A DNA stretch of 64,000 nucleotides from an uncultured Gemmatimonadales bacterium. Lineage in GTDB: Bacteria; Gemmatimonadota; Gemmatimonadetes; Gemmatimonadales; GWC2-71-9. Positions 12,033-27,697 of this stretch are shown piece after piece. The translations under genes and the position numbers were made by a program. The stretch's first letter is position 1. Each line of letters starts with the position of its first letter. A model generated the notes under the pieces. It worked only from the letters and a program-made list of their open reading frames with translations. It did not search any database and was not told the DNA's origin. The DNA is taken from positions 1,216,001 through 1,280,000 of the forward strand of contig CAVYSW010000003.1 of assembly GCA_963771275.1 (NCBI GenBank), written 5' to 3'.

Positions 12033-15000
12033 TCAGCCCCAGTTCTTCGAGTCCGGCGCCAGGGCACGGAGCGACTTGAGGAGGCGAAACGCTGATGACT
12101 CGGCGGTATGACGGTATGGCGGTACGGTGGTATGCAGCTCCGGCCCGAGGGCTGTTTCGTTCCGCCGGTCCGCCATTCCGCCGTTCCGCCTGACCGCCAA
12201 CCCCCGCACCTCCTCCGCAATCACGTTCAGCGTCCCGTCATCCTTGGCGAGCTTCCCTCTGACCCACAGGAACGGCTCCGCGCGGATGGCGAGCCGGTCG
12301 CGCTCGTAGACGTCGGGGTGGACGATCACGTTGGTCATGCCGCCCTCGTCTTCCATCAGGATGAACACGAAGCCCTTGGCAGTCTGCGGCCGCTGGCGGG
12401 CCACCACCATCCCCACCACCTCGAGGATCTCGCCATGCTCCTGCTCCACCAGGCGGTCGCTGCGCACCGCGCCTGCTGGCAACGCGCCCGCGAGCAGGGC
12501 GAGCGGATGACCGCTCGCGGCGAAGCCCAGCACCGCGTACTCGGCGAGGAGCTTCTCGCCGGCGTCCACGCCGCCGAATTGGAGTGACTCGTGCGGGTGG
12601 TTGAGCGGCAGCTCCAGCTGGCGACGCACGCGCCGGGGGTCACGGTCCTGCTTGGGGCCAAGCCAGAGGCCAACCTGCCAGAGCAGCTCCCGCCGCGTGA
12701 GGCCGAACCCGTCGCAGGCACCGACCCACACCAGGTGGTCGAACGCGTTGCGTGTGAGGCCGGGCGGCGTGCGCCGCACGAGGTCGCCTAAACTCCGGTA
12801 GGGGCCGCGCCGCTCGCGTTCCTCCACCACGGCTGTGGAGTGCTCCTCGTTCCACTCCCGGATGAAGCCCAGCCCCACGCGCACCTGGCCGTCCTCGACG
12901 GTGCACCACACGTCGCTCGCGTTGATGTCGGGGAGCAGGATCTTCACGTCGTGGCGGGCGGCATCCCGGCCCAGCGCGTCGAGCGAGTAGAAGCCCATCG
13001 GCTGGTTGTTGAACAGCGCCGTGTAGTACTCGACGGGGTGATAGTGGTACAGCCAGGCCGACTGATAGGCCAGGAGCCCGAAGGCCGCGGCGTGCGACTT
13101 GGGGAACCCGAACTCGGAGAACGCGACCACCTGCTCGAACACGCGCTGGGCGACCGGCTCGGGGACGCCGTTTCGCGCGGCGCCTTGCTTGAATTCTTCC
13201 CAGAATCCCTTGAGCAGCTCGCGCGAGCGCCGCCGGCTCATCGCGCGGCGCAGCGCCTCGGCCTGACCGGCGTCGAACCCGGCGAGCGCCTGGCAGACCT
13301 GGAGCACCTGGTCCTGGAAGATGATGACGCCCAGGGTCTCGGCGAGCGCCTCGCGGAGCAGCGGGTGCTCCAGCGGGGGCGCGTACGGCAGGCCCCGCTC
13401 GAGCGCGTGGCGCCGGGCCTCGCGGCGGCGGACGTAGGGGTTCACCGCGCCGCCCACGATGGGGCCGGGCCGCACGATCGCCACCTGCACCGCGAGGTCG
13501 GCCAGGTTCCGCGGGCGCACGCGGCGGATCATCTGGATCTGCGCGCGACTCTCGATCTGGAACAGCCCGACCGTGTCGCCGTGGCAAATTCGGTCGTAGA
13601 TCGCCTGGTCCTCGAAATCGATGCGGGAGAGATCGGGCGGGACGCCTTCGTTCCGCGCCACGAGCTCGACGCACTCCTCGACGAGGGAGAGCATGCCGAG
13701 GGCGAGAAAATCGATCTTGATGAATCGGGCGTCGTCGCAGGAGTCCTTGTCCCACTGGCACACCACGCGATCGGGCATGGCGGAGCGCTCGAGCGGGACC
13801 AGCTCCACCAGGGAGCGGCTCGAGATGATCATCCCGCCCACGTGCTGCGAGATGTGGCGCGGCAGGCCGGCGATCGCCTCCCCCAGATCGCAGAGATCGC
13901 GCCAGAGCGGAGCGTCCACCTTGTCCTTGAGCCCGGGAATGCGGCTCATCTCCTCGCGCACCGCGGCGGCGGACTCGAAGGACGAAGCCATCTTGGCGAG
14001 CTGCTCGATCTCGCCTACGGGCAAGTCGAGCGCCTTGCCAACCTCGCGCACGGCCGACCGGAAGCGGTAGGTCGGGTACGAGCAGACGAGGCCGACGTGG
14101 TCGTCTCCATAGCGCTTGTAGACCCGGCGGATCAGCTCCTCCCGAATCTCGCGCGGAAAGTCGAGGTCGATGTCCGGGACGGACGCGAGCGTCTCGTTCA
14201 GGAACCGGCCGATGAACAGGCCGCTTCGGATGGGGTCGATGTGCGACAGGCCGAGGAAGTAGCAGATGATGGAAGAGACGGACGAGCCGCGCCCGCGGCC
14301 TGGCAGCAGGTTACCCGAGGCTCGCCGGCTCCCGGCCCGGACGTCGGCGGCGACCTCGCGCGCCAGCTCGAAGAGATCGTGGTAGACGAGAAAGAACCCG
14401 CAGAGCTTGTGGTGCTCGACGAGGCGTAGCTCCTTCTCGAGCCGGCGCACCGCCTCGTCCCGGAGCGGGTCGCTCGGCGGGTAGCGCTTGTCGAGCCGCG
14501 AGCGGCACAGCTCGGCCAGGGCGCGCGGCGCCGCCATCCGGTCGGAGCCGCGGAAATCGGGGAACGTGTAGCCCAGGTCGCGCGTGAGGTCGAACGCGGC
14601 GCAGCGCTCGGCGATGCGGAGTGTGTTGGCGAGCGCGTCGGGCCGGTCGCGGAAGCAGGCGGCCAGCTCCGCAGGCGGTCGGAGATAGAACTCGCTGTTG
14701 GCGCGGCGCACGTCGTGCGAGCCGTCGAGTGTCAGGCGATGCCGGAGGGCGGTGAGGACGTCGTGCAGGCGGTGCCGGTCGCGCTGGTCGTAGTGTACGT
14801 CTCCCGTCGCCACGACCGGCAGCCGCTCGGCGTCGGCGATGTTGCACAGCGCGCGGGTGCGGTCCCGATCGCCGCGCACGGCGTTCCGCTGCAGCTCGAC
14901 GAAGAACCGCTCGCGGCCGAAGCGATCACGGCAGCATGCGGCGAGCCGGCGGGCGGCGGTGAGCCCCTCGCGGGCGAGCGTCGCCGGCAACAGGCCGCCG

Positions 15001-15374
15001 CGGCAGCCGGAGAGAACGATCAGGCCTTCCTGCCGGGCGGCGAGCGAGTCAAAGTCGAGCCGCGGGTCGCGCCGGTCCTCACGGCCGAGATGCGCCTCGG
15101 TGATCAGCCGGCAGAGGTTGGCGTACCCCTGCGGCGTCTCGGCGAGCAGGGTGACGTGCGTGCCGTCGAGCAGGGTGACCTCGGCGCCGGTGATGGGCTG
15201 AAGGCCGAGGTGGCGGGCGGCCTGCGCGAACGCCATCGAGCCGTAGAGACCGTTGTGGTCGGTGAGCGCCAGCGCGGGATAGCCCAGCGCCTGGGCCTGG
15301 AGCACCAGTGCCTCGGGCGGCGCGGTACCGTCCAGGAAGGAGAAGGCCGAGTGGCAGTGGAGCTCGATGTACAT
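12033..15374 (-). CDS. dnaE2: Error-prone DNA polymerase III alpha subunit (DnaE2/ImuC)
   Basis: PHP motif ELHCHSAFSFLDG, PDIDLD, FPKSHAAAF, NNQPMGFY; OB fold RQRPQTAKGF; downstream of imuB. Confidence 0.95.
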   Translation of the reverse strand: MYIELHCHSAFSFLDGTAPPEALVLQAQALGYPALALTDHNGLYGSMAFAQAARHLGLQPITGAEVTLLDGTHVTLLAETPQGYANLCRLITEAHLGREDRRDPRLDFDSLAARQEGLIVLSGCRGGLLPATLAREGLTAARRLAACCRDRFGRERFFVELQRNAVRGDRDRTRALCNIADAERLPVVATGDVHYDQRDRHRLHDVLTALRHRLTLDGSHDVRRANSEFYLRPPAELAACFRDRPDALANTLRIAERCAAFDLTRDLGYTFPDFRGSDRMAAPRALAELCRSRLDKRYPPSDPLRDEAVRRLEKELRLVEHHKLCGFFLVYHDLFELAREVAADVRAGSRRASGNLLPGRGRGSSVSSIICYFLGLSHIDPIRSGLFIGRFLNETLASVPDIDLDFPREIREELIRRVYKRYGDDHVGLVCSYPTYRFRSAVREVGKALDLPVGEIEQLAKMASSFESAAAVREEMSRIPGLKDKVDAPLWRDLCDLGEAIAGLPRHISQHVGGMIISSRSLVELVPLERSAMPDRVVCQWDKDSCDDARFIKIDFLALGMLSLVEECVELVARNEGVPPDLSRIDFEDQAIYDRICHGDTVGLFQIESRAQIQMIRRVRPRNLADLAVQVAIVRPGPIVGGAVNPYVRRREARRHALERGLPYAPPLEHPLLREALAETLGVIIFQDQVLQVCQALAGFDAGQAEALRRAMSRRRSRELLKGFWEEFKQGAARNGVPEPVAQRVFEQVVAFSEFGFPKSHAAAFGLLAYQSAWLYHYHPVEYYTALFNNQPMGFYSLDALGRDAARHDVKILLPDINASDVWCTVEDGQVRVGLGFIREWNEEHSTAVVEERERRGPYRSLGDLVRRTPPGLTRNAFDHLVWVGACDGFGLTRRELLWQVGLWLGPKQDRDPRRVRRQLELPLNHPHESLQFGGVDAGEKLLAEYAVLGFAASGHPLALLAGALPAGAVRSDRLVEQEHGEILEVVGMVVARQRPQTAKGFVFILMEDEGGMTNVIVHPDVYERDRLAIRAEPFLWVRGKLAKDDGTLNVIAEEVRGLAVRRNGGMADRRNETALGPELHTTVPPYRHTAESSAFRLLKSLRALAPDSKNWG
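12101..12190. repeat. Octamer-like tandem/inverted repeat in-frame in the dnaE2 3' end
   Basis: CGGCGGTA/TGACGGTA/TGGCGGTA units opposed by CCGCCATT/CCGCCGTT units. Confidence 0.65.
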
Positions 15375-15468: not shown

Positions 15469-15792
15469 TCAGGGCCGCTGCATGTACCACTCGCCCGTCA
15501 TGACATCCTCGAACAGCACCACGTGCGCGCCGCCTTCGAGCACGACCTCGACGTAGCGGCGGTGGATGGGGGTGCGCCACCACTCGTCGTCGATGCGCCA
15601 TTCCTCCAGGACCTCCTCCACCCCCCTCTCATCTGCATCTCTGCCCCTCTCCCCCTCTGCCCCTTCTTCATCGGCACTCTCCCGCACCCACATGGGTCGG
15701 CCCCACGTGTCGAGGCCCACCTCCACCGCGGAGGGCAGATTCAGGGCTCGAAGGCGATCAGGGCGTAGCGGCGTTCGGGCAGGCGCGACCAT
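15469..15792 (-). CDS. Stand-alone ImuB C-terminal-like protein (DUF6504-like)
   Basis: WRIDDEWWRTPIHRRYVEVVLEGG resembles the ImuB C-terminal EWW..RDY region; lies between imuB and dnaE2. Confidence 0.7.
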   Translation of the reverse strand: MVAPARTPLRPDRLRALNLPSAVEVGLDTWGRPMWVRESADEEGAEGERGRDADERGVEEVLEEWRIDDEWWRTPIHRRYVEVVLEGGAHVVLFEDVMTGEWYMQRP

Positions 15793-17063
15793 GGCTGGAC
15801 CTCGATGACGCGGTAGAGCATGTGGCGCTTGAGGCGCTGGTGGATTTCACGAGCGGCGGCGCGGAGCGCGCGATGGCGGCCGGCGCGTGCCGCGGCCACG
15901 GCGTCCCGGGCGAAGAGCTGCAGCTCGTCGGTGCCGCGGGCGAAGGCGGTGAACTCGACGGTGAGCCGCTCGACGGCCCCCGTGGGCGGCGTCTGCTCGA
16001 GTCGGGTGACGAGCGGGGGGAGGATCCGCTCGCGCAGGGCGGCTGGATCCTTGAGCAGGACCTCGATCATCCATGAGGCGCCCTGCTCGAGCGCGGCGCG
16101 CACGCGGGCCGCCTGCACGCGCCAGCCTGTGCGTCGCGGGTCGCGCAGCGCGTGCTCGATCAAGACGCCGATCGTGTGCGCGAGCATCCCGCCGTCGGCG
16201 ACGGGGGAAGGAAAGTCGAGCGTCGCGACGATGGGCTGTGGGCGAATCTGTCCGCGCACGGGCTCGTCGACCCGGCCGGCGGCCAACCGCCACGCCGCAC
16301 GCCCCGAACGACCGAACTGGGCCGTCACCGCCGCCTCGGGCAGCGCGGTGAAGTCACCGAGCGACTTGAGGCCGAGCTGTTGCAGACGGCGGTGGTCGTC
16401 GGCGTCGAGCGGCAGCACCGCAAGTGGCTGGGCTTGCAGGAACGTCGCTCGTGCTTCGTCAGTCACGATGACGGGCTCGCCCGGCTTGGCGCGCGTGGCG
16501 GCGACCCAGGCGGCGAATTTGCCCCGCGCCCAACCCAGCCGGGCCCCACCCCTCCCCTTCCCAGGGGCAGAAGGGGCAGAGGGGCAGAGAAGAGACGGGG
16601 CTTCGGCCTTTCCCTCCATCTCTGCCCCTCTCCCCCTCTCACTCCCCCTCTCCTCCTCTGTTGCTGCCGCTGTGATGATCCCCAATTGTCGAAGCGGGGA
16701 TCCATAGAGCCCTTCAAGCCCATCTACTCCCACGTACGCCCGTCCCAGCTCCGCAGGCTCGATCACGGGGCTCACCTGCTCGAGGCGCAGCAGCAGGCGG
16801 GCGAACTGCTCGTCGTAGAACACGGGATCGGGCTCGAGCAGCGCGAGCGTGGGACAGAGGCCGATGGCCTGGCTCACCGTGAGGCCGGGTCGTACACCCT
16901 GGCGGCGCGCGAGTGAGGAGGCCTGCCAGATGCGGCGACTGTCCTCCGGTGCGAGGAGCGCGGTGGGCCGGCCCACGAGATCGGGACGCCGCTCCTCCTC
17001 GCAGCGCAGCGGGAAGAGCGGGATCCAGAGGCAGGCGGCATGCTCGCTGGTCAGTCCCTGCAT
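15741..17063 (-). CDS. imuB: Y-family polymerase-like protein ImuB
   Basis: ACLWIPLFPL lacks the catalytic Asp; ARRQGVRPGLTVSQA, SPVIE, clamp-type ELQLF and SRLPERR. Confidence 0.88.
   Translation of the reverse strand: MQGLTSEHAACLWIPLFPLRCEEERRPDLVGRPTALLAPEDSRRIWQASSLARRQGVRPGLTVSQAIGLCPTLALLEPDPVFYDEQFARLLLRLEQVSPVIEPAELGRAYVGVDGLEGLYGSPLRQLGIITAAATEEERGSERGRGAEMEGKAEAPSLLCPSAPSAPGKGRGGARLGWARGKFAAWVAATRAKPGEPVIVTDEARATFLQAQPLAVLPLDADDHRRLQQLGLKSLGDFTALPEAAVTAQFGRSGRAAWRLAAGRVDEPVRGQIRPQPIVATLDFPSPVADGGMLAHTIGVLIEHALRDPRRTGWRVQAARVRAALEQGASWMIEVLLKDPAALRERILPPLVTRLEQTPPTGAVERLTVEFTAFARGTDELQLFARDAVAAARAGRHRALRAAAREIHQRLKRHMLYRVIEVQPWSRLPERRYALIAFEP
16564..16659. repeat. GGGGCAGA octamer palindromic element in-frame in imuB
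   Basis: GGGGCAGA x3 opposed by TCTGCCCC/TCTCCCCC units; related copies at 15636-15666 and 63523-63550. Confidence 0.75.
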
Positions 17064-17087: not shown

Positions 17088-17120
17088 CCGAATATATCCC
17101 GAAGATGGGAAACTTGGCAA
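17088..17120 (-). promoter_or_regulatory. imuB-dnaE2 promoter with candidate operator
   Basis: Minus strand TTGCCA-N18-TATATT overlapped by ATCTTCGGGATATATTCGG (17088-17106). Confidence 0.65.
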
Positions 17121-17169
17121 GCCTCTGCACGAGACGTATATAAGTCATTGCTATACAACTAGTTGAGTT

Positions 17170-18381
17170 ATGACAACGGACCGATCGGCAAGCTCAATGC
17201 GGTGCTGGGCCATTTCCACTGACCGTCTGTCTGCCTCTGCCGCTCAAGAAGCTGCGCCGCTACCTGGAAGACTCACGGTGACAAACCGCCCGAACGGCCA
17301 GCCCCAAGGCGAGGACGCGCTCCGTGAACTGTGTGCCGCCGCCCGCGCACTCTCGGGCCGATCGGCGCCTCCGGGTCTCATCGCTCGCGTCGTGGAGGAG
17401 CGGGCGCGCGGGATGCGCGCCGTGCTTCCGACGGGTGAGCCCGTCTCAACCCGCCGTGCACCGCGACGAGCCGTACTGGCGGGAGCGGCGGCCCTGCTGG
17501 TCGTCGGCGTGCTCGTGCTGAATCACTGGCCCGCAACCAACGAACCGGCGGCAACTGAGGCCGCCCAAGGAGCGTGTGCGATGAATCCAGAGACTCGGGC
17601 GTTGCTTATGGCCGGCTCGTTCCTTCTTGCAACCGCGTGTGCGCAGGAGCCGGCGGCGCCGTACGAGGCCGCTCCACCCGTGACCGCGCTTGGGACGCGC
17701 GAGCTGCAGGAGGGAACCTGGGTCTATCGGGTCGGGAGGCAGGGCGGGCACGCGATGTACCAGACCGTCTACCTGCTCACCAGGGCCGGGTCGGGTGAAC
17801 AAGCGGAGTGGATCAGTGTGGACTCCCGGCGGACGCCTGACGGATGGACGCGTGCCGACACCATGTATTACGCCGCTGACGGACTGACGCCGTTGCGGCA
17901 AACGTATCACCGAGCGCATGATGGCCAGGACCGGTGGTCTGTGCGGGTGAGGTTTGGGTCCGACAGCGTCGATGTCGTGTCGGACTATCTTGGCAATCGC
18001 GACCACCCTCCCCAGCGGCGCACGTGGAGTGCCCAACTCCCTGACGACGGGGTCCCCAGCGTCGTGGCGGCGCACGAGCCGGCGCTCGGGCTCTTCGTCC
18101 GCCGCCTCCCTCTGGCGAAGGGGTGGGCTGGCTCCTTTCATGTCGGGCCCATTGGAAACCGGTCCTACCGCGAGACGTCATTCAAGGTCGTGGGAGAAGC
18201 CCGAGTCACCGTGCCGGCCGGCGTGTTCGACTGTTGGCGCGTCACGGTGACCGATGGAGTCACGTTGCGGCGGGTGCTCTGGGTCAGCAAAGCCGAGCAG
18301 TTGCTCGTGAAATCCGTGCTTGGGCCTGAGGGTCACGGTCTCGAGTGGGCTTTGCTGTCGTTCACGCCGTCGCAGAACTAG
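17170..18381 (+). CDS. Hypothetical single-pass membrane protein with DUF3108-like C-terminal beta domain (start may be GTG 17278)
   Basis: TM segment AVLAGAAALLVVGVLVL; C-terminal VTVPAGVFDCWRV motif. Confidence 0.6.
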   Translation: MTTDRSASSMRCWAISTDRLSASAAQEAAPLPGRLTVTNRPNGQPQGEDALRELCAAARALSGRSAPPGLIARVVEERARGMRAVLPTGEPVSTRRAPRRAVLAGAAALLVVGVLVLNHWPATNEPAATEAAQGACAMNPETRALLMAGSFLLATACAQEPAAPYEAAPPVTALGTRELQEGTWVYRVGRQGGHAMYQTVYLLTRAGSGEQAEWISVDSRRTPDGWTRADTMYYAADGLTPLRQTYHRAHDGQDRWSVRVRFGSDSVDVVSDYLGNRDHPPQRRTWSAQLPDDGVPSVVAAHEPALGLFVRRLPLAKGWAGSFHVGPIGNRSYRETSFKVVGEARVTVPAGVFDCWRVTVTDGVTLRRVLWVSKAEQLLVKSVLGPEGHGLEWALLSFTPSQN

Positions 18382-18534
18382 CGGTCGCGCTCTCGACGCC
18401 GGGGTTCAAGGACTACAGGTTCACCCTGCGGCGGCAGGCGCGATCCGGTAGCTTCACGTCGGCGATGCATTGATGACGGTTCCGGAGAGTCGTACGTTTA
18501 GGTTGGACGGTCCTCACCACACCGAGGTCCGTCC

Positions 18535-18882
18535 GTGCCGATCACAGCCCGACTGTCCCGGAAGCTCCACCAGACGCTGGGCGACGAAGCCGGAGAGGAT
18601 CTTGTGACCTGGATGCAGCAGGTGGATGCGCAGCGCGTCGAATTGCGGGAGTTGAACGAGCTCAACTTCGCGCGGTTTGACGCGCGTCTGTCCGCCTCGG
18701 TCGCCGAGCTCCGCCAGGAGATGCAGGCAGGGTTTGCCACATGGGGGGGAGGACTCCGGCAGGAGATTGCTCAGCTGGAGATCCGTCTCGAACGCCGGAT
18801 CGGCGACCTCATCAAGTGGTCGTTCGTGTTCTGGGTGGGCGCGGTCGGGGCCATCGCGGCACTTGCGGGGGTGCTGCGGTAG
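18535..18882 (+). CDS. DUF1640/CCDC90-like coiled-coil membrane-anchored protein
   Basis: Coiled-coil body with C-terminal LIKWSFVFWVG TM anchor. Confidence 0.7.
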   Translation: MPITARLSRKLHQTLGDEAGEDLVTWMQQVDAQRVELRELNELNFARFDARLSASVAELRQEMQAGFATWGGGLRQEIAQLEIRLERRIGDLIKWSFVFWVGAVGAIAALAGVLR

Positions 18883-18886
18883 GCGC

Positions 18887-18971
18887 GATCAGGGGTCCCG
18901 GGCTGGTTCACCCTTCAGGGTCAGGTTCCTCGGCCGAGCCCGCACTTCAGTGCGGGACTCCCAGCCTGATC
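18887..18971. repeat. REP-like palindromic element between convergent genes
   Basis: Hairpins ACCC-TTCA-GGGT (18910-18921) and CCCGCAC-TTCA-GTGCGGG (18939-18956), bracketed by GATCAGG/CCTGATC. Confidence 0.5.
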
Positions 18972-20577
18972 AGGTCTTCGACCGCTTGACCTCGACCCGC
19001 TCGGCCGCGGGCGCTTCCTCTCTCACCTTCCCCAGGACCGCCGGCAGCTCGATGCCCGCCTGGTGGGCTAGCTCATGCACGGCGGGCAGCGAGCCGATGA
19101 GGCTGGAGAGGAAATCCGCCGTCGCCCCACTGCCGCCCGGCCCGCTCCGGCCGCCCTCCCACACGGTGATCTTGTCGATCTTCAGGTTCTGAATCGCCTT
19201 CACCTGCTCGGCGACGAGCTTCGGCATCTGCTCGATGAGCAACAGCGTGGGCGCGATCTGCGGATTCTCGGCACACGCGGCGACCAATCGCCGGTACCCC
19301 TCGGCCTTGGACTCCAGCACCTTGAGCAAGCCCGCGGCCTCCGCCTCGTACTTCGCGAGCATTGCATCGGCCACGCCTCTCGCCTCGCGTCGTGACCGCT
19401 CTGCGGTCGCCTCGGCCTCGACCTCGACCCGCTTCTTCTCGATCTCCTGTGGCGCCAACTGTTCCTTTGCCAGCCGCGCCAACTCTCGCTCGCGTTCGGC
19501 CTTGAGGATTTCCTCCTCCGCGCGCGCGGCCGCGACCTTTGCCTGTTGCATCGCCCCGGCGCGCACCTGCGCCAGCGTGGCGTTCGATTTAGCAATCTCG
19601 GCCTGCGACGTGTTCTCGCCCTGCACGGCGGTCGACTCGGCCTTGGCCACCTGGATGCGCTGGGTCTGCTCGGCCTCCTTCTTGGCGGCGACCGTCTCCG
19701 CCTCGCGCTGCGCGGTGGCGATCTGCGCGTTCCGGCGGGATTCCACCTCGCCCGTCACCGCGGTCGCCTCGAACGCCGCGACCGCGACGCGCTGCTGCTG
19801 CTCGGCGTCTTTCTGACCCTGGACCGCCGTCGCCGCTTCCCGCGCCACGCCGATGGTCTTCTCGCGATCGGCGATGGCCTGACCCGTCGCGCCGTTCCGC
19901 TCCTGCTGCGCCACTTCCACCCGCGCGCGGTTGATGGCCTCGGCGGCCGCCCGCTTGCCGATCGCCTCGATGTAGCCGCTCTCGTCGGTGATGTCGCGGA
20001 TGTTCACGTTGATCAGCGTGAGACCGATTTTGTTGATCTCCTCGGTCACGTTGGTGTTGATCAACGACATGAACTTCTCGCGGTCCTTGTTGATTTCCTC
20101 GATCGTGAGGGTGGCGATCACGAGGCGGAGCTGCCCCAGAATGATGTCCTGCGCCTGCTCCTGAATCTTGTTTTCCGGAAGGTACAGCAGGCGCTCGGCC
20201 GCCGAGTTCATGAGCACCGGATCGGTGGAGATGCCCACCGTGAACGTCGCAGGCACGGCGACTCGGATGTTGTTGAGCGACAGCGCGCCCTGGAGCGGAA
20301 TGTCGATCACCATGGGCTCGAGCGACAGGAAGGCGTAGTCCTGGAGCAGCGGCACGACGAACTTGCCGCCGCCGTGGATGCACTGGGCCGCGCGGTTGCC
20401 GCCCACCTTGCCGTAGAGGACCAGCACCTGGTTGCTCGGGCAGCGCTTGTACTGTTTCACCACGAAGACGATGAAGAACAGGAACAGCAGCCCGATCGCG
20501 CCCACCAGTCCGAGCAACACGGCCGGGTTTGTCCCAACGTCGGCTTGCAGAGCGAACAGCGTGAGAGGGAACGACAT
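18970..20577 (-). CDS. Flotillin/SPFH domain protein
   Basis: N-terminal TM; YKRCPSNQVLV, GGGKFVVP and GQLRLVIATLTIEEINKDR; long Ala/Glu coiled coil. Confidence 0.92.
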   Translation of the reverse strand: MSFPLTLFALQADVGTNPAVLLGLVGAIGLLFLFFIVFVVKQYKRCPSNQVLVLYGKVGGNRAAQCIHGGGKFVVPLLQDYAFLSLEPMVIDIPLQGALSLNNIRVAVPATFTVGISTDPVLMNSAAERLLYLPENKIQEQAQDIILGQLRLVIATLTIEEINKDREKFMSLINTNVTEEINKIGLTLINVNIRDITDESGYIEAIGKRAAAEAINRARVEVAQQERNGATGQAIADREKTIGVAREAATAVQGQKDAEQQQRVAVAAFEATAVTGEVESRRNAQIATAQREAETVAAKKEAEQTQRIQVAKAESTAVQGENTSQAEIAKSNATLAQVRAGAMQQAKVAAARAEEEILKAERERELARLAKEQLAPQEIEKKRVEVEAEATAERSRREARGVADAMLAKYEAEAAGLLKVLESKAEGYRRLVAACAENPQIAPTLLLIEQMPKLVAEQVKAIQNLKIDKITVWEGGRSGPGGSGATADFLSSLIGSLPAVHELAHQAGIELPAVLGKVREEAPAAERVEVKRSKT

Positions 20578-20579
20578 GA

Positions 20580-21215
20580 TCAGTCTCCGGGTGCAGGGAG
20601 TTCCGGAACGGCCCGTTCGACGGTGAGCGTGTGATCCTCGTTGACGCCGGTGACACGGACGAGGGCGCCGGTCACGAGCGCTTCACCGTCGGTCACCGCC
20701 GGGTAGTACTGCATCCGCTCGTCCACCACGACGCGGACGGAGCCGCGTCCTGCCCGCTGCGCGGGGACGGTCACGTAGACCGAGCCTTCCTCATACAGCG
20801 CGGTTTCCATGGTGAGGGTGCCGCTACTCTGCATCCGAGCGATGAAGGTGAGCATCTTCCCGAGCATCCACATCATGCCCGACCCGGTGGCCAGGCCCAC
20901 CCCCACGCCGACGAATACCGGCAGGCCGAAGCCGCGCACCGCGCTCAGGCCGCCCCACCCGAACCCCATGAGGAAGGCGGCGATCGCCTGGATCGAGAGG
21001 ATCTTGAACGCCGCGCCGGAGTCGGTGTGGTCGGCGGCGTCGCCGCCGGCGTCGCCGCCGGCGTCTCCCCCGCTCGTGTCCAGCACGAAATCGTGGTGCA
21101 GGTCATTGACCCCGCCGAACAACATCAGGCCAATGCGCACGAGGAAGAACAGGGTGCCGACCAGGGCCGGCACCCCGAAGAGTCCTGCATTGCCGCCGAG
21201 CAATACGTCCAGCAT
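20580..21215 (-). CDS. NfeD-like membrane protein (flotillin partner)
   Basis: SIQAIAAFLMGFGWGG TM region plus C-terminal OB-like domain GSVYVTVP; adjacent to flotillin. Confidence 0.8.
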   Translation of the reverse strand: MLDVLLGGNAGLFGVPALVGTLFFLVRIGLMLFGGVNDLHHDFVLDTSGGDAGGDAGGDAADHTDSGAAFKILSIQAIAAFLMGFGWGGLSAVRGFGLPVFVGVGVGLATGSGMMWMLGKMLTFIARMQSSGTLTMETALYEEGSVYVTVPAQRAGRGSVRVVVDERMQYYPAVTDGEALVTGALVRVTGVNEDHTLTVERAVPELPAPGD

Positions 21216-21295
21216 GAAGATCCGCACCGGCGTCCGAGGCAAGCGGGAAGATGCGCCGGCGGACGAGGCGTCGGAAGAGGGCGTATCTTGAAAGC

Positions 21296-22162
21296 ATGAT
21301 CCGGTTCGGCGTCGCGGGCTGGGACTACGACGACTGGTGGGGCCCGGTCTACCCGGCCGACCGGAAAGGGAGGCGCGCGTTCGATGCCCTCACCTACCTC
21401 GCCCGCTACTTCGACACCATCGAGATCAACTCGACGTTCTACCGGCCCGCGTCCGAGCGCTCGGCGACGGCGTGGGCGCGGCGGGTGGAGGGCAATCCGA
21501 ACTTCAGATTTACCGCCAAGCTGTACCAGCGGTTCACGCACCAACGGGACGAAGCCTGGACTCGCCCCGAGGTGGACGAGGTGCGGCGCGGGCTCGCGCC
21601 GCTCTTGGAAGCGGACCGGCTCGGCTGCCTGCTGGTCCAGTTTCCGTGGTCGTTCAAGCGGGACGCGGCATCACGCGAGTGGCTGGGCGATCTGGTCACC
21701 GCGTTCGGCGACTTCCCGCTCGCCGTCGAGGTGCGTCACAGCTCGTGGAATGTGCCGGAGTTCTACGCGTCGCTCCGCGAACGGGGCGTCGGCGCGGTGA
21801 ACATCGACCAGCCGGTGTTCCGGGACTCCATCAAGCCCGGTACCGAGGTCACGTCCGGCGTGGGCTATGTGCGGCTGCACGGCCGGAACTACGAGAACTG
21901 GTTCCGCGACGACGCCGAATCACACGAGCGGTATGACTACCTGTATACGAAGGCTGAGCTGGAAGGCTGGCTCGAGCGGATTCACGAGGTGGCGGAACGC
22001 GCGCGCGACACCTACGTGATCACGAACAACCATTACCGCGGGCAGGCACCGGCGAACGCGCTGATGCTCAGGCGGTTGTCAGGGGAGAGCGTGGTGGCGC
22101 CGCCGGAGCTGATGGCGGCATTTGCCGACGCGTTCCGGGGCGTCGGCCTCGGTATGGGTTGA
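21296..22162 (+). CDS. DUF72 (YecE-like) protein
   Basis: GVAGWDYDDWWGPVYP, EINSTFY, EVRHSSW, YVRLHGRN and YDYLY. Confidence 0.92.
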   Translation: MIRFGVAGWDYDDWWGPVYPADRKGRRAFDALTYLARYFDTIEINSTFYRPASERSATAWARRVEGNPNFRFTAKLYQRFTHQRDEAWTRPEVDEVRRGLAPLLEADRLGCLLVQFPWSFKRDAASREWLGDLVTAFGDFPLAVEVRHSSWNVPEFYASLRERGVGAVNIDQPVFRDSIKPGTEVTSGVGYVRLHGRNYENWFRDDAESHERYDYLYTKAELEGWLERIHEVAERARDTYVITNNHYRGQAPANALMLRRLSGESVVAPPELMAAFADAFRGVGLGMG

Positions 22163-22188
22163 CAGACTTAGCTAAATCTCTAAGTATT
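22159..22188 (+). promoter_or_regulatory. Promoter and probable ArsR operator
   Basis: TTGACA at 22159-22164; inverted repeat ACTTAG-N8-CTAAGT at 22166-22185; ATG follows at 22193 with no SD (probably leaderless). Confidence 0.65.
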
Positions 22189-22192
22189 CGGC

Positions 22193-22474
22193 ATGAGCTT
22201 GCGCGAGGGTGTCTTCAAGGCGCTGTCGGACCCGACCCGCCGACAGATTCTGGAGCTCTTGGGCCGGCGGGACATGACCGCGGGGGAGATCGCCGACCGG
22301 TTCCCGATCGCCTTCGCGTCGGTCTCGCGACATCTGGGGATCCTGCGCGATGCCGACCTGGTGGCGACCGAGCGAGAGGGACAGTTCATCCGCTACCGGC
22401 TGAACACGACGGTGTACCAGGAGCTGGTGCGCTACCTGGTGCGAGTATTCGGAGGAGGATCGCCCCATGCGTAA
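22193..22474 (+). CDS. ArsR family repressor, SdpR-like
   Basis: FKALSDPTRRQIL, SVSRHLGILRDADLV and YRLNTTV. Confidence 0.92.
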   Translation: MSLREGVFKALSDPTRRQILELLGRRDMTAGEIADRFPIAFASVSRHLGILRDADLVATEREGQFIRYRLNTTVYQELVRYLVRVFGGGSPHA

Positions 22475-23105
22475 GCGCTGGCTCGGACTGGTGATCGCCG
22501 CCCTGGCGATCGCGTTCTCGATCTGGGCGTACCCGCAGCTGCCGGACAAGGTGCCCACGCACTGGAACTTCCGGGGCGAGCCGGACGGCTACTCATCGCG
22601 CCTGATCGGGGTTGCCCTGATGCCCCTCGTGATCCTGGCGATCACCGGCATTGCGCAGGTGCTGCCGCGGATCGATCCCCGCAGCGCCAACTACGCCAAG
22701 TTCATCAAGGTCTACTGGCTGATGATGAACGGGATCCTGCTGTTCATGGGGGTGCTCCACTTCGCGATGCTGGGCAACGCGCTGGGCGCTCCGGTGAACA
22801 TTGGGCGCATTGCGCCGGTGGGGGTGGGTTTGCTGTTCATGCTGCTCGGGAACTACTTCGGGCGAGTCGAGCCCAACTGGTTCTTGGGGATCCGCACGCC
22901 GTGGACGCTCTCCAGCGACACGGTCTGGCGGAAGACGCACCGCACGGGTGCGTGGCTGTTCGTGATCGGCGGCCTGCTGATGATCGCGTGCGCGTTCCTC
23001 AGGAAGACCGCGGTGTACGTGGTGTTCGGGCTCACGATCGCGCTGGTGGCCCTCGTGCCGGTCGTGCTGTCGTACGTCCTCTGGCGCAAGGAGCAGGCGC
23101 GATGA
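22467..23105 (+). CDS. SdpI family membrane (immunity-like) protein
   Basis: LPDKVPTHWNFRGEPDG and NWFLGIRTPWTLSSDTVWRKTHR. Confidence 0.92.
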   Translation: MRKRWLGLVIAALAIAFSIWAYPQLPDKVPTHWNFRGEPDGYSSRLIGVALMPLVILAITGIAQVLPRIDPRSANYAKFIKVYWLMMNGILLFMGVLHFAMLGNALGAPVNIGRIAPVGVGLLFMLLGNYFGRVEPNWFLGIRTPWTLSSDTVWRKTHRTGAWLFVIGGLLMIACAFLRKTAVYVVFGLTIALVALVPVVLSYVLWRKEQAR

Positions 23106-24097
23106 ACGGGAACCGGGGTGCGGCGATCGCCGTCGCGGCGTTGTCGGTCTTCACGGTGCGGGCCGCGGCACAGGCGGTGGCCGACACGCTCCCGCCGGCC
23201 GGCGTGACGGAGACGCCCTACACGTTCACCAGCGGCGCCCTGACTCTCTCCGGCACCCTGGCCATGCCCGCCGCGGCCGGCCCGGTGCCCGTGGCCCTGA
23301 TCGTGGCAGGCTCGGGCCCCACCGACCGGAACGGGAACTCCGGGCAGGGTCTCCGGACCAACACGTACGCGCAGCTTGCGTGGGGTCTCGCCCAGCGGGG
23401 CATCGCCTCGCTGCGGTACGACAAGCGTGTGCTGCCGGCCACGCAAGGCCCGGTGGACATCGCGGAGCTCACGTTCGACGACTTTGCGGCGGATCTCTCA
23501 GCCGCGGGGACCGCGCTCGCGCATGACGGGCGGTTCTCGAAAGTGATCGTGATCGGGCACAGCGAGGGCGCCTCGCTGGCCGTGCGGGCGGTGGCGCGCG
23601 GCCTCGCGCCCGCGGGGATCGTGCTGATCGCCGGTGTGGGGCGGCCGTTCGGGGCGGTGATCCACGAGCAGCTCGGCCGCCAGGTGGATTCCGCCACGCT
23701 GGTCCTGTTCGACAGCGCGCTGGCGCGGTACCTGCGCAACGAGCCGACCGGCGATGTCCCGGGTCCCCTGATGGTGCTGCTGGCGCCGGTCAACCGCACC
23801 TACATGCAGAGCCTTGTGGCGCTCGATCCGGTGGACGAGCTCAAGTCCGTCACGGTGCCGACGATGATCATGCAGGGTGCGGCGGACGCACAGGTGCGCG
23901 TCGTCGATGCCGAGCTGCTACACCAGGCCCGGCCCGACGCGCAGCTGGTGATCCTCCCCGAGACCAACCACGTCCTGAAGCACGTGACCGGCACGCTGCT
24001 CGCCGCCCAGATCACGACCTATCGGGATCCCACGATCCCGATCGTCCCCGACGTGGTGACCCGGATTGCCGACTGGATCGACGCGTTGGGGCGGTAG
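23102..24097 (+). CDS. Exported alpha/beta hydrolase
   Basis: Signal peptide; GSGPTDRNGN, RYDKR, GHSEG nucleophile and NHVLK. Confidence 0.88.
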   Translation: MNGNRGAAIAVAALSVFTVRAAAQAVADTLPPAGVTETPYTFTSGALTLSGTLAMPAAAGPVPVALIVAGSGPTDRNGNSGQGLRTNTYAQLAWGLAQRGIASLRYDKRVLPATQGPVDIAELTFDDFAADLSAAGTALAHDGRFSKVIVIGHSEGASLAVRAVARGLAPAGIVLIAGVGRPFGAVIHEQLGRQVDSATLVLFDSALARYLRNEPTGDVPGPLMVLLAPVNRTYMQSLVALDPVDELKSVTVPTMIMQGAADAQVRVVDAELLHQARPDAQLVILPETNHVLKHVTGTLLAAQITTYRDPTIPIVPDVVTRIADWIDALGR

Positions 24098-24100
24098 TCT

Positions 24101-24160
24101 GGAGCGGCAGGAGCGGCAGGAGCGGCAGAGGGGGCAGCGGGGGAGAGGAGAGCGGTGGAG
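24101..24160. repeat. GGAGCGGCA 9-mer tandem repeat
   Basis: Three perfect copies plus degenerate ones after the hydrolase stop. Confidence 0.75.
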
Positions 24161-24202
24161 AGTGTCATCGCCCCACCGGAGGGTACGCGGCAGGCGGAGT
24201 CG

Positions 24203-25198
24203 CTACCACAATCGCAACTGCTCCGTCCGCCGTCCCGACGTAGCCGAGAAGGTGTAGACCGGCAGACCGATCTCGCCGGCGAGCGCCGTGAAGCGGGCGG
24301 TGAGCGCGCTGCGATAGCGGGATGGCGCGTCGGCCGCGCGGCCGTAAGCCGCGGCGTAGCGACGGGCGAGCCCGGGAAAGTGACGCTCGAGAACGGGGAG
24401 CAGCGGCTCGCGGACCGCGGGATAGAGCCGCAGGGGGCCGGCGTGCGCCGACCCGGCTCCCGCGTCGCGCGCGGCCCGCAGCACGGCCCGCAGGTGGGCC
24501 ACTCCATCAGTGATGCCGGGGAGCACCGGGGCGAGGATGAGCACGGTGTTGAGGCGCGCCGTCGCAAGGCGCGCAAGCGCCCGGAGGCGTGCCCGTGGGG
24601 CCGGGGAACGCGGCTCGAACAGCCGCACCAGCTTCGGGTCGGTGCCGATGAGCGAGATGTGCACCACGAGCTCGTGGCGTGCCGCGACGGCGCCAAGCAG
24701 CGCGATGTCGCGCGTCACCAGCGGGCTCTTTGTTACGATGGCGATGTGGAATCCGCGCTCGGCCGCGAGCCGCTCGAGCACGAGCCGGGTGAGCCGAAAC
24801 ACGCGCTCGGCCGGTTGGTAAGGATCGGTTGCCGTCCCGATCCCGAGCGCATGGCGCGCGCCGTGCCGACGCCGCAACCGCGCGAGGTCCCGGTCGAGAG
24901 CGTCCGCCAGCTGCTCGCGCTGCTTGACGAGAATGGTGTGCTCGAACGCTTCCCACGGCTTGGGCGACACACCGTCCGGTCCGGGGATGGCGGCGAACGC
25001 GCCGACCTTGCGGGCGCGCTCCAGAGCATAGGCATGCGCGAAGCGCGCGTAGCAGTAGCGGCACCCGAACTCGCATCCGATGTAGGGGTTGAGCGACCAG
25101 AAGGGGAGCCCGGTCGCCTCGGGCGGATTGAGGATCGAATGAACGGGCCGCTCGAGGAACCGGACAGTGCGACCGGTTCGGATCTCGTTCAGCCGCAT
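24203..25198 (-). CDS. SplB-like radical SAM protein (DNA-repair associated family)
   Basis: SLNPYIGCEFGCRYCYA (CX3CX2C), GTATDPYQPAE, TKSPLVTRD, APVLPGITD; C-terminal QLRLW. Confidence 0.88.
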   Translation of the reverse strand: MRLNEIRTGRTVRFLERPVHSILNPPEATGLPFWSLNPYIGCEFGCRYCYARFAHAYALERARKVGAFAAIPGPDGVSPKPWEAFEHTILVKQREQLADALDRDLARLRRRHGARHALGIGTATDPYQPAERVFRLTRLVLERLAAERGFHIAIVTKSPLVTRDIALLGAVAARHELVVHISLIGTDPKLVRLFEPRSPAPRARLRALARLATARLNTVLILAPVLPGITDGVAHLRAVLRAARDAGAGSAHAGPLRLYPAVREPLLPVLERHFPGLARRYAAAYGRAADAPSRYRSALTARFTALAGEIGLPVYTFSATSGRRTEQLRLW

Positions 25199-25374
25199 CT
25201 CCCCCAGCCGCAGGTCGGGCAGTAGGAGCAGCCGGACTCCGGGAGGATGCGCGCGCCGCACTCTGGGCACCGCTCTCGATCGTACATACTGTTGAAGAAT
25301 AACAGCTTACGCCGTTCCTCACGGGTGAGGAGCCGGGTCGGCAGAAGCTTGGCGTTGCTGTCTCGATACCGCAT
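25189..25374 (-). CDS. 61-aa zinc-ribbon microprotein
   Basis: MRYRDSNAK...CPECGARILPESGCSYCPTCGWGRCG; ATG 8 nt after TATATT; stop overlaps the radical SAM start region. Confidence 0.65.
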   Translation of the reverse strand: MRYRDSNAKLLPTRLLTREERRKLLFFNSMYDRERCPECGARILPESGCSYCPTCGWGRCG

Positions 25375-25379
25375 GAACG

Positions 25380-25411
25380 CCGAATATATACCGAAGATTT
25401 CCCGATGGCTA
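25380..25411 (-). promoter_or_regulatory. Promoter and candidate operator of the Zn-ribbon/radical SAM operon
   Basis: ATCTTCGGTATATATTCGG at 25380-25398 on the minus strand, 18/19 identical to the imuB element. Confidence 0.65.
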
Positions 25412-27697
25412 GTCCACCGCTGGCGCCGCGAAGAGGGCGGTGCACAGCACCGGCTGGTCCAACTTGGGGTGCCGTACGGGGTGCCTCCCAAGCCAGGCGC
25501 GAAGGGCGGCGGTTCCTCCGCTGAGCGCGTCAGTGAGTTCCCGGTGCGCCCCGATCGCCAGACCGCCATGAAGCCTGACGAGCGCTTCGTCGAGCAGCCC
25601 GAGGGCATGCCGATCCCGCCGCCGCGCGGCAACGCGCGCCCGCGCGAGGATCCTCCGGGCCAGTCGGCGGGCGTCCGGACGATGATCGGTGCTCGCCGCG
25701 GCCGCGACACGACCGCGGAGCATCGTGCGGATCGCCGCGAGCAGTCGGGCCGGGGGCTGGCCGACGACGGCCTGACGCACCATGCAGTCCTCGACGATGT
25801 CGAGCGGCGTGGTATCGTCCACCGGGGCGGCCAGTTCCCACACGTCTCCGCCCCGACCGCTCCAGCGGATCGCGCAGCAGGCACTCGATGGGCCACGCAC
25901 AAGCGTGTGGCCGGCACACGGCGCCCGGTGGCCGCGCGCGAAGCGCTCCCGCCGCTCAAAGGCACCCCCGGTCACGCGGGCGCGGCCGACCGTGGCCGTG
26001 CGCGGAACACCCAGCCTGATCTGCGTGCGCGACTTTCGCTCGATCAGGGCGGTCAGGTCGAGCAGGCTCTCCAGCTCGTCAGGTGGCCCAAACCACCAGG
26101 CCGTGACGATCGAGTGTGGGGACCCGAGGCGCGCGATGCGGCCGAGCCGTTGCTCGAGCCGGAGTGGCGTCCAGGGCAGGTCATAGTGGACGACGCCATC
26201 GGCGTCCTGGAGGTTGAGTCCCTCGCTCGCGAGATCGGTCGCGATCAGCACGTCCACCCTCGTCGCGGTGCGCGTGATGCCGGCCCGCTGCGCGCGCGGC
26301 GCAAACAGAGCGAATGCCTCCGCGATCGAAACCGAGCCCGATGCGATCCGGGCCCGGCGGGACGAGACGGTGGCTACGCGGCGCCATGCCAGCGCGTCGC
26401 CCAAGGCCGTGGCCGTCGCGCGCGCAGCGGTGAACACGAGGGTCTTCCGGCCTGCCCGGCTGCGGAGGATCTCGCTCAGCGCGGAGAGCTTGGGATTGGT
26501 CGCCGACCGGGACAGCGTCACCAGCAGCCGCGTGATGCGTTCCCGCTCCGCTTCCCACTCGTCGGGGTCGACGTGCGTCGCCCGTGCCGGGTCGAGCAGC
26601 AACTCGAGCTGCGGTGACTCGTCGGCCCCGAACAGCGCACGGGCTCCGCCGCGCGACAGGCGCTCACCGCGCCGCGCCGCGGCGAGCGCGCGGTCCAGAT
26701 AGGTGCGATGGCGTAAGAGAGATTCCCGAAACGCCTCGGGCGACGAGGCGAGACGCGCGGCGAGGTGGGTCCGCAGCAGTCCGGCGGCGTCGGTGCCGAA
26801 CGACGGGAACCGGAGACCCGCGAGCCACGCCACGAGCTCGCCGTGGCAGGTGGGGTCGACCGTGGGAAGACGGATCACCGCGGCGTCGCCGGCGTCGGGG
26901 AGCAAGGCGCTGACGCCGGCGGTCTCGGGCGAGCGGGCCACGATGAGCGGGCACAGCGCGCGGACGAGCGGATCGATGGCCTCCCGGCCGGCGGCCGCTT
27001 CGAGCGACGGTACGCCCAATGCCGCGAGGCCGTGATCGGCGAGGAATAGCCGGACGAGAGAGACCAGGTCGGCCGCGCGGTTCACTACGGGGGTCGCGGT
27101 GAGCAGGAGCACATCGGCCGCGCGGACCTGGCGGGCGAGGGCGTCATAGCGGCAGGTCGCGGGATGGCGGAAGCGGTGCGCCTCGTCCACGACGAGGAAC
27201 GGGGTGGCAGGAACCCGTGCGCCGCGACTCAACGCTTCGTGGGTGACCAGGCGCGCCGGGACGTCATGGTGGGCGAGCAGCGCCTGCCACTGGCTCCTGA
27301 TCGCGGCGGGGACCGCGATCGTGGCGCGGGGATAGCGGGTCGCAAGGGCCAGGGCGATGTAGCTCTTGCCCAGTCCCACCGCATCCGCGAGCAGGGCGCC
27401 GCCGAACACTTGGAGTGCCGTCGCGAGTCGCCGGGCGGCTTCGCGCTGGTGCGGCAGCAACCACGCGGGGGGCGTCCAGTCGGCTTCCGCGACGCCGCAC
27501 GCTGCGAGGCGGAGCGCGGGCAACAGGGCGGACAGGGGGCGCGCGGGTCCCGGGTCGGCGATCCACGCAACCGGCTCGCGCACCGGGTGGAGCGCGTCAG
27601 CCGAGATCGTCGGCCAGGGAGCGGAGCGTAGCGCGGACGGTGCTCGGGAGGTCGAGCGCGTCCGCGGCGGCGCCGTCGAGATCGTGCTGTGGGACAT
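25409..27697 (-). CDS. SNF2-like SF2 helicase (start uncertain, possibly GTG 27583)
   Basis: LADAVGLGKS, VDEAH, LTATP, SEGLNLQ and DLPWTPLRLEQRLGRIAR. Confidence 0.88.
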   Translation of the reverse strand: MSHSTISTAPPRTRSTSRAPSALRSAPWPTISADALHPVREPVAWIADPGPARPLSALLPALRLAACGVAEADWTPPAWLLPHQREAARRLATALQVFGGALLADAVGLGKSYIALALATRYPRATIAVPAAIRSQWQALLAHHDVPARLVTHEALSRGARVPATPFLVVDEAHRFRHPATCRYDALARQVRAADVLLLTATPVVNRAADLVSLVRLFLADHGLAALGVPSLEAAAGREAIDPLVRALCPLIVARSPETAGVSALLPDAGDAAVIRLPTVDPTCHGELVAWLAGLRFPSFGTDAAGLLRTHLAARLASSPEAFRESLLRHRTYLDRALAAARRGERLSRGGARALFGADESPQLELLLDPARATHVDPDEWEAERERITRLLVTLSRSATNPKLSALSEILRSRAGRKTLVFTAARATATALGDALAWRRVATVSSRRARIASGSVSIAEAFALFAPRAQRAGITRTATRVDVLIATDLASEGLNLQDADGVVHYDLPWTPLRLEQRLGRIARLGSPHSIVTAWWFGPPDELESLLDLTALIERKSRTQIRLGVPRTATVGRARVTGGAFERRERFARGHRAPCAGHTLVRGPSSACCAIRWSGRGGDVWELAAPVDDTTPLDIVEDCMVRQAVVGQPPARLLAAIRTMLRGRVAAAASTDHRPDARRLARRILARARVAARRRDRHALGLLDEALVRLHGGLAIGAHRELTDALSGGTAALRAWLGRHPVRHPKLDQPVLCTALFAAPAVD

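Follow-up and report, generated by a model that had tools for sequence, protein, structure and literature searches.

The window analysed here, 64,000 nucleotides (nt) of contig CAVYSW010000003.1 of an uncultured Gemmatimonadales bacterium (source assembly of 3.86 Mb in 11 contigs, 70% G+C), carries two copies of a 19-base element, which are considered putative operators of the SOS repressor LexA and are located in front of two operons, namely imuB-dnaE2 and a radical-SAM gene preceded by a small Zn-ribbon open reading frame (ORF). The plus strand reads CCGAATATATCCCGAAGAT at 17088-17106 and CCGAATATATACCGAAGAT at 25380-25398; the corresponding readings of the minus strand, which in both cases is the coding strand of the downstream genes, are ATCTTCGGGATATATTCGG and ATCTTCGGTATATATTCGG. 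The copies are identical at 18/19 positions within unrelated flanks, and the core of both is the direct repeat TTCGG-N6-TTCGG with a period of 11 base pairs (bp). An earlier note on this DNA had described exactly such a pair, a direct repeat present in two copies with dissimilar flanks, both over a TATATT -10 hexamer, and the sequence and the promoter scan bear this description out. The features of the window are as follows.

17088..17106 (core 17088-17103), minus strand: SOS box 1, predicted operator, ATCTTCGGGATATATTCGG (sequence reading; imuB orthologue loci)
17091..17120, minus strand: promoter-like site TTGCCA-18-TATATT of the imuB operon, -10 within the box (promoter scan 10/12; shuffles mean 0.1)
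15741..17063, minus strand: imuB, Y-family polymerase homologue, 440 amino acids (aa) (Pfam IMS, E 5e-14)
15469..15792, minus strand: conserved 107-aa ORF between imuB and dnaE2 (tblastn)
12033..15374, minus strand: dnaE2, error-prone Pol III alpha homologue, 1113 aa (Pfam PHP, DNA_pol3_alpha, finger, HHH_6)
25380..25398 (core 25380-25395), minus strand: SOS box 2, predicted operator, ATCTTCGGTATATATTCGG (sequence reading; radical-SAM orthologue loci)
25383..25411, minus strand: promoter-like site TAGCCA-17-TATATT of the Zn-ribbon/radical-SAM operon, -10 within the box (promoter scan 9/12; shuffles mean 0.0)
25189..25374, minus strand: Zn-ribbon ORF, 61 aa, first gene of the operon (weak Zn-ribbon matches, all below cut-offs)
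24203..25204, minus strand: radical-SAM gene, SplB-like / Rv2578c-like (Pfam Radical_SAM)

Since a promoter is called over each of the boxes, both of them overlap a -10. Box 1 is separated from the imuB ATG (17063) by 25 nt, and box 2 from the ATG (25374) of the Zn-ribbon ORF by only 6 nt. At the latter site the TATATT hexamer ends 8 nt upstream of the ATG, so the mRNA of the Zn-ribbon/radical-SAM operon would be nearly leaderless. Box 2 is also accompanied on either side by the one-mismatch pentamers ATCGG (25402-25406) and TGCGG (25369-25373), which keep the 11-nt phase.

Placement of the box in the genome and in relatives

Exact TTCGG-N6-TTCGG sites were counted 8 times in the whole genome, compared with 8.0 expected from pentamer frequency and 6 in a reversed control. 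Five of the eight are located upstream of lexA (two sites), recA-recX, imuB-dnaE2 and the Zn-ribbon/radical-SAM operon, and the remaining three are intragenic or separate an mltG-like gene from a divergent ORF; it is the placement of these sites, not their number, that is far from chance. The base preceding TTC in the five promoter sites is C, A or T. Outside the window the features concerned are the following.

C10 659581-660189: lexA, 202 aa (TIGR00498, 215.6 bits with a cut-off of 111; matches to PF01726 and PF00717)
C10 659516 and 659542: lexA promoter boxes, 65 and 39 nt before the ATG (659581), both exact TTCGG-N6-TTCGG
C6 13611: recA-recX box, exact TTCGG-N6-TTCGG

The nearest relatives by LexA are Gemmatimonadales and Gemmatimonadota metagenome-assembled genomes. 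Upstream of their lexA genes (70-85% protein identity) at least one exact box was found within 160 nt in 80/80 loci and two boxes in 70/80, with starts mostly 25-26 nt apart and divergent flanks, the usual arrangement being TTGCnn-box-GTAnnnT-box. Across the sites the TTCGG pentamers are invariant, the -10-like spacer differs between gene classes, and position -1 is G in 20% of 149 sites. Among strong imuB orthologue loci (58-68% identity in relatives) a box is located just upstream in 12/13, and in 11/13 its core is TTCGGGATATATTCGG, both counts including the own locus; the box of locus L100 has another spacer. For the radical-SAM gene an exact box was found not more than 450 nt upstream in 23/28 orthologue loci (own included). 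Five well-assembled close relatives contain 85 exact sites compared with 31 for the reversed-pattern control, and the clear cases among the 25 sites whose flanks were examined stand before recA (4/5 genomes), dinB, a Lhr-like helicase gene and dnaE2; at dinB of relative G046 the exact box ends 2 nt before the ATG. A weight matrix built from the lexA sites of relatives was not used for scoring, because it was derived from exact matches only and is circular at the core. Absence of conservation in relatives, which the earlier note had named as a ground for abandoning its proposal, is thus contradicted at lexA, imuB and the radical-SAM gene.

These counts also bear on the simplest alternative, according to which two AT-rich -10 regions resemble each other by chance in a GC-rich genome. 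The equality of the exact-site count with its chance expectation would suit such an accident, and the one-mismatch scan, performed with a crude gene caller that covers 80% of the genome, likewise returned 226 matches, which is the chance level. The 18/19 identity and the position of 5/8 exact sites at SOS promoters speak against it, and the conservation at 80/80, 12/13 and 23/28 orthologous loci already refutes it, leaving this explanation a negligible probability.

Another alternative takes the element for a promoter module instead of a repressor site, recognized, for example, by an alternative sigma factor or an activator shared by damage genes. It draws on the TATATT -10-like sequence found inside the box at both window copies and at recA, and on the single orientation of all sites relative to the gene. 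At lexA, with the promoter TTGCGG-17-TATACT (read by eye), one box is located between the -35 and the -10 and the other one downstream of the -10, so that the hexamers are not formed by the boxes, whose spacers are GC-rich there; furthermore, the pentamers remain invariant while the -10-like spacer varies by gene class, and the 6-nt gap between pentamers is incompatible with -35/-10 geometry. Taken together, these facts make a promoter module quite improbable. The related concern of the earlier note, that the match could be a generic -10 context, did not hold up either: an AT-rich NNTNTN spacer with not more than two core mismatches occurs at only 7 sites genome-wide, and the best 4 of the 7 are the three -10-overlapping boxes and one candidate on contig C2.

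This candidate, TTCGGTATATACTCGG at C2:5459-5474 on the minus strand (locus L296), is also the sole plausible extra site from the one-mismatch scan; it overlaps a TATA-like -10 and is followed, after about 35 nt, by a 337-aa ORF that matched no Pfam family; the site may represent a further regulon member. The ORF contains an E-S-K motif recalling PD-(D/E)XK nucleases, and contig C2 itself is a 14-kb piece of lower G+C.

Several observations concern the recA and dinB loci. The boxed recA (C6 12501-13626, locus L005) shares 91% identity with its boxed counterpart in relative G039 and has recX behind it; in this assembly its reading frame apparently shifts near residue 250, and its leader and the recA-recX spacer contain long inverted repeats of GTGAAAAG-like units. 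The second recA (C10) is 68% identical to that of G039 and has no box. The exact site C9:231080, located between the mltG-like gene and the divergent ORF 1.7 kb before dinB, was judged to be a chance occurrence and was not accepted as a regulon site. Upstream of dinB (contig C9, ~232300-232800) there is a block of CAATGATCAGTGTTCAA-type repeated units resembling repetitive extragenic palindromes, and no SOS box.

LexA and the fifth base of the box

Judged from its sequence, the lexA product of this genome is a bona fide LexA. It aligns full-length with solved LexA structures, and in alignment with E. coli LexA the VAAGEP cleavage site (Ala-Gly), the Ser of G-x-S-M (GDSM) and the Lys of TVKRL are all conserved. 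The protein presumably resembles the Gram-positive type more than the longer alphaproteobacterial LexA. The LexA_DNA_bind domain (PF01726) was found in 57/61 sampled genomes of the phylum.

The recognition helix of this LexA reads SLATVHEHL, and its central part varies within the phylum together with the box. The covariation set comprised 60 of 68 lexA matches (the 8 omitted were all from the window's own family), and the box was sought not more than 400 nt upstream. Where the helix is TVHEH (families f1-f6), TTCGG-N6-TTCGG is located upstream in 34/34 loci; where it is T(V/A)HKH (families f7-f9), TTCGC-N6-TTCGC is located upstream in 13/15, one of the two misses being a locus that ends at 179 nt and the other a box with one mismatch. 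The variable Glu/Lys position (E44 here) aligns with E45 of E. coli LexA, which reportedly contacts bases in a LexA-DNA structure of 2010. The wing also differs between the groups, NESR vs NRSR. In many Gemmatimonadetes genomes LexA has a divergent second paralog, whose helix is of STKTVSD type (loci L345 and L347-L356; families f2-f4); neither the TTCGG nor the TTCGC box was found at its loci (0/11), and it presumably reads a different motif. This covariation is the best computational evidence that LexA would be the protein reading the box. In families f8 and f9 the recA promoters are boxless in genomes with and without a LexA match alike, and therefore a presence/absence test of LexA against the recA box is uninformative.

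The same box was encountered outside the phylum. A metagenome scan with the pattern TTGNNN-TTCGG-W6-TTCGG-N-TANNNT matched at least 120 stretches, of which 80 loci were examined; the figures that follow apply to the matches listed. A LexA homologue starts just downstream in 48/80 loci, with 31-67% identity to LexA of this genome (31-48% for the low-GC set), and several of the other loci proved to be unrelated tandem repeats with an 11-nt unit. Most of the LexA-bearing contigs have 26-46% G+C, the recognition helix of their low-GC LexA being T(V/I)HEH, and among 44 N-terminally readable proteins the key helix position is E in 36, Q in 6, D in 2 and K in none. The nearest LexA clusters of one tested protein (L200), in which a taxon is assigned for few members, have as their commonest phylum Minisyncoccota, which holds the class Patescibacteriia, and the low-GC contigs with the box look like Patescibacteria. 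Many of the low-GC LexA proteins behind a TTCGG box (L200, L213, L205, L241) have about 320-330 aa instead of about 200, and their nearest Atlas clusters contain LexA fused to an N6/N4 DNA methylase domain.

It is tentatively proposed, at somewhat short of even odds, that the fifth base of the head-to-tail operator is determined by one helix residue (Glu, Gln or Asp with TTCGG and Lys with TTCGC) and that Gemmatimonadota and Patescibacteria share an old direct-repeat LexA lineage. If this is true, the Glu and Lys forms would provide a natural pair of specificity variants for studying the recognition of an asymmetric site by a symmetric LexA dimer.

The box could instead be the operator of some other damage-responsive regulator, such as a response regulator or another winged-helix protein, and this regulator would also control lexA. 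OmpR/PhoB-type regulators typically bind direct repeats with an 11-bp period, the assignment of LexA to the box is deduced from sequence, and the set of boxed genes alone would suit any damage regulator. A regulator of this kind would leave several facts without account: the fifth base of the box follows the LexA helix residue in 47/49 loci, the paralog with the other helix is boxless in 11/11, and the same box occurs with the same LexA helix type in very distant low-GC contigs, where lexA is the sole shared feature examined. Direct-repeat LexA motifs are, moreover, documented in excerpts of two papers (PMC8565304, PMC7739468). Another regulator is therefore regarded as unlikely, though less remote than a promoter module.

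On the strength of the -10 overlap, the boxes at lexA and recA-recX, the conservation at orthologous promoters and the covariation with the helix, both 19-base elements very likely serve the LexA of this genome as operators, with a probability of about 0.88. The proposal of the earlier note that the element is the site of a damage-responsive regulator of this lineage thus gains support from placement, conservation and covariation. According to the proposed mechanism, the two winged-helix domains of a LexA dimer would sit head to tail on the DNA, spaced by one helical turn (11 bp), and as long as the repressor is bound, imuB-orf107-dnaE2 and the Zn-ribbon/radical-SAM operon would be closed to RNA polymerase. 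DNA damage would lead to RecA filaments and to self-cleavage of LexA, for which the Ala-Gly site, Ser and Lys are conserved; lexA, recA and the two operons would thereby be freed from repression, and error-prone synthesis (imuB, the small ORF and dnaE2) would be switched on along with the radical-SAM operon.

Several points weigh against LexA operators. The exact-site count is in no excess over chance. No box was found in the 200 nt read at one imuB locus of 13 (L094), and 5/28 radical-SAM loci have no exact box in the stretch read. Neither at lexA nor at the boxed recA was a promoter called by the scan at the thresholds of the tool. That LexA is the binder is deduced, and the covariation may be a single evolutionary event, because it follows one deep split (f1-f6 vs f7-f9). 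Structurally, it is awkward for a dimer with two-fold symmetry to bind a head-to-tail repeat; LexA motifs of direct-repeat form have nonetheless been published, as excerpts of PMC8565304 and PMC7739468 attest. Finally, both copies of uvrA, ssb, dinB and the second recA (C10) are without a box, with at least 3 mismatches on the gene strand. Among the genes that the earlier note had listed for an enrichment check, lexA (two boxes) and recA-recX thus have exact boxes, and uvrA, ssb and dinB do not, so the regulon appears to be small.

Genes behind the two window boxes and their neighbourhood

The 107-aa ORF is located after imuB in 12/12 loci of relatives (tblastn) and has no Pfam match. It overlaps the 3' end of imuB by about 50 nt in another frame, and its ATG is formed by the conserved Pro-Trp codons of imuB. 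A programmed frameshift in imuB was considered and rejected, since in locus L096 the ORF does not overlap imuB and stands in a different frame, and a separate small gene is favoured. It may be a detached C-terminal domain of ImuB, because 107 and 440 aa add up to the typical size of full-length ImuB. The dnaE2 gene of the window has no box of its own, with at least 4 mismatches in its upstream region.

In the second operon the 61-aa Zn-ribbon ORF overlaps the start of the radical-SAM gene, whose best NCBIfam match is NF038135 (Rv2578c family) with 176.7 bits, under the cut-off of 430. Directly upstream of this operon and on the same strand, a SNF2-type helicase gene and an Eco57I/PglX-like methyltransferase gene occupy 25409-30665 (minus strand) and look like a phage-defence pair; the best NCBIfam matches of the helicase are DpdE and DISARM DrmD, both below cut-off, and its stop codon is 11 nt from SOS box 2.

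Comparison with known LexA motifs and regulons

The box described here would serve as an SOS box for a phylum widespread in soil and water, by means of which the damage regulon of any Gemmatimonadota genome could be read off. In the present genome, this regulon would be a small core formed by lexA, recA-recX, the mutagenesis genes imuB-dnaE2 and a radical-SAM operon of repair-like type, without uvrA, ssb and dinB. That Glu goes with TTCGG and Lys with TTCGC amounts to a simple recognition rule open to bench tests, and this rule bears on an unexplained property of LexA, namely that some of these proteins bind direct repeats and not palindromes.

A LexA-binding motif of Patescibacteria (Candidate Phyla Radiation, now Minisyncoccota) was reportedly described in 2017 by Sanchez-Osuna, Barbe and Erill in Environ Microbiol 19:3465 (PMID 28618189). 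It shares with the present element the direct repeat, and in the Minisyncoccota-like contigs of the metagenome scan the TTCGG box in lexA promoters goes with a helix of HEH type, as it does here. The differences lie in the host phylum (Gemmatimonadota, 70% GC) and in the regulon, which here includes imuB-dnaE2 and the radical-SAM operon. TTCGG-N6-TTCGG is probably the same word as the Patescibacteria motif. A search of the literature on LexA in Gemmatimonadota, Gemmatimonadetes and Gemmatimonas found no description of an SOS box in titles and abstracts, and the string TTCGG-N6-TTCGG had no match among the full texts searched. The earlier note had not recognized the element as a described motif; this stands as far as Gemmatimonadota are concerned, and it probably does not stand for the motif as a whole, given the box at Patescibacteria-like lexA genes and the motif of 2017.

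The box GTTC-N7-GTTC of Alphaproteobacteria, which occurs also in Acidobacterium capsulatum, resembles the present element in its head-to-tail arrangement, 11-bp period and TTC-N8-TTC skeleton. The word GTTC itself is not matched, since the base before TTCGG is here C, A or T instead of G; the statement of the earlier note that the alphaproteobacterial box has the same geometry and a different sequence is therefore accurate. In the available part of PMC8565304 this box is one of several direct-repeat LexA motifs, and according to excerpts of PMC7739468, which cites papers on Verrucomicrobia, Patescibacteria and Acidobacterium, LexA evolved direct-repeat recognition several times.

The closest regulon for comparison is that of Balneolaeota, whose direct-repeat LexA motif was obtained by comparative genomics and confirmed by electrophoretic mobility shift assay; as outlined in the accessible text of the same paper (PMC7739468), it comprises lexA, recA, translesion polymerases, a helicase and a radical-SAM protein. 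In content this regulon comes very close to the set of boxed genes in the present genome and its relatives, and the motif is likewise a direct repeat, differing in its consensus TTACACATATTTTWTACATA and in the phylum. Since the imuA-imuB-dnaE2 cassette is also described as LexA-regulated (PMC3919608, in excerpt), the regulon content found here fits published LexA regulons, in line with the statement of the earlier note that imuB-dnaE2 and splB-like genes are typical LexA targets. In summary, the element is, as a kind, an ordinary SOS repressor operator, and by its sequence very likely a direct-repeat operator of a type already known for LexA, found here in the Gemmatimonadota class to which this genome belongs.

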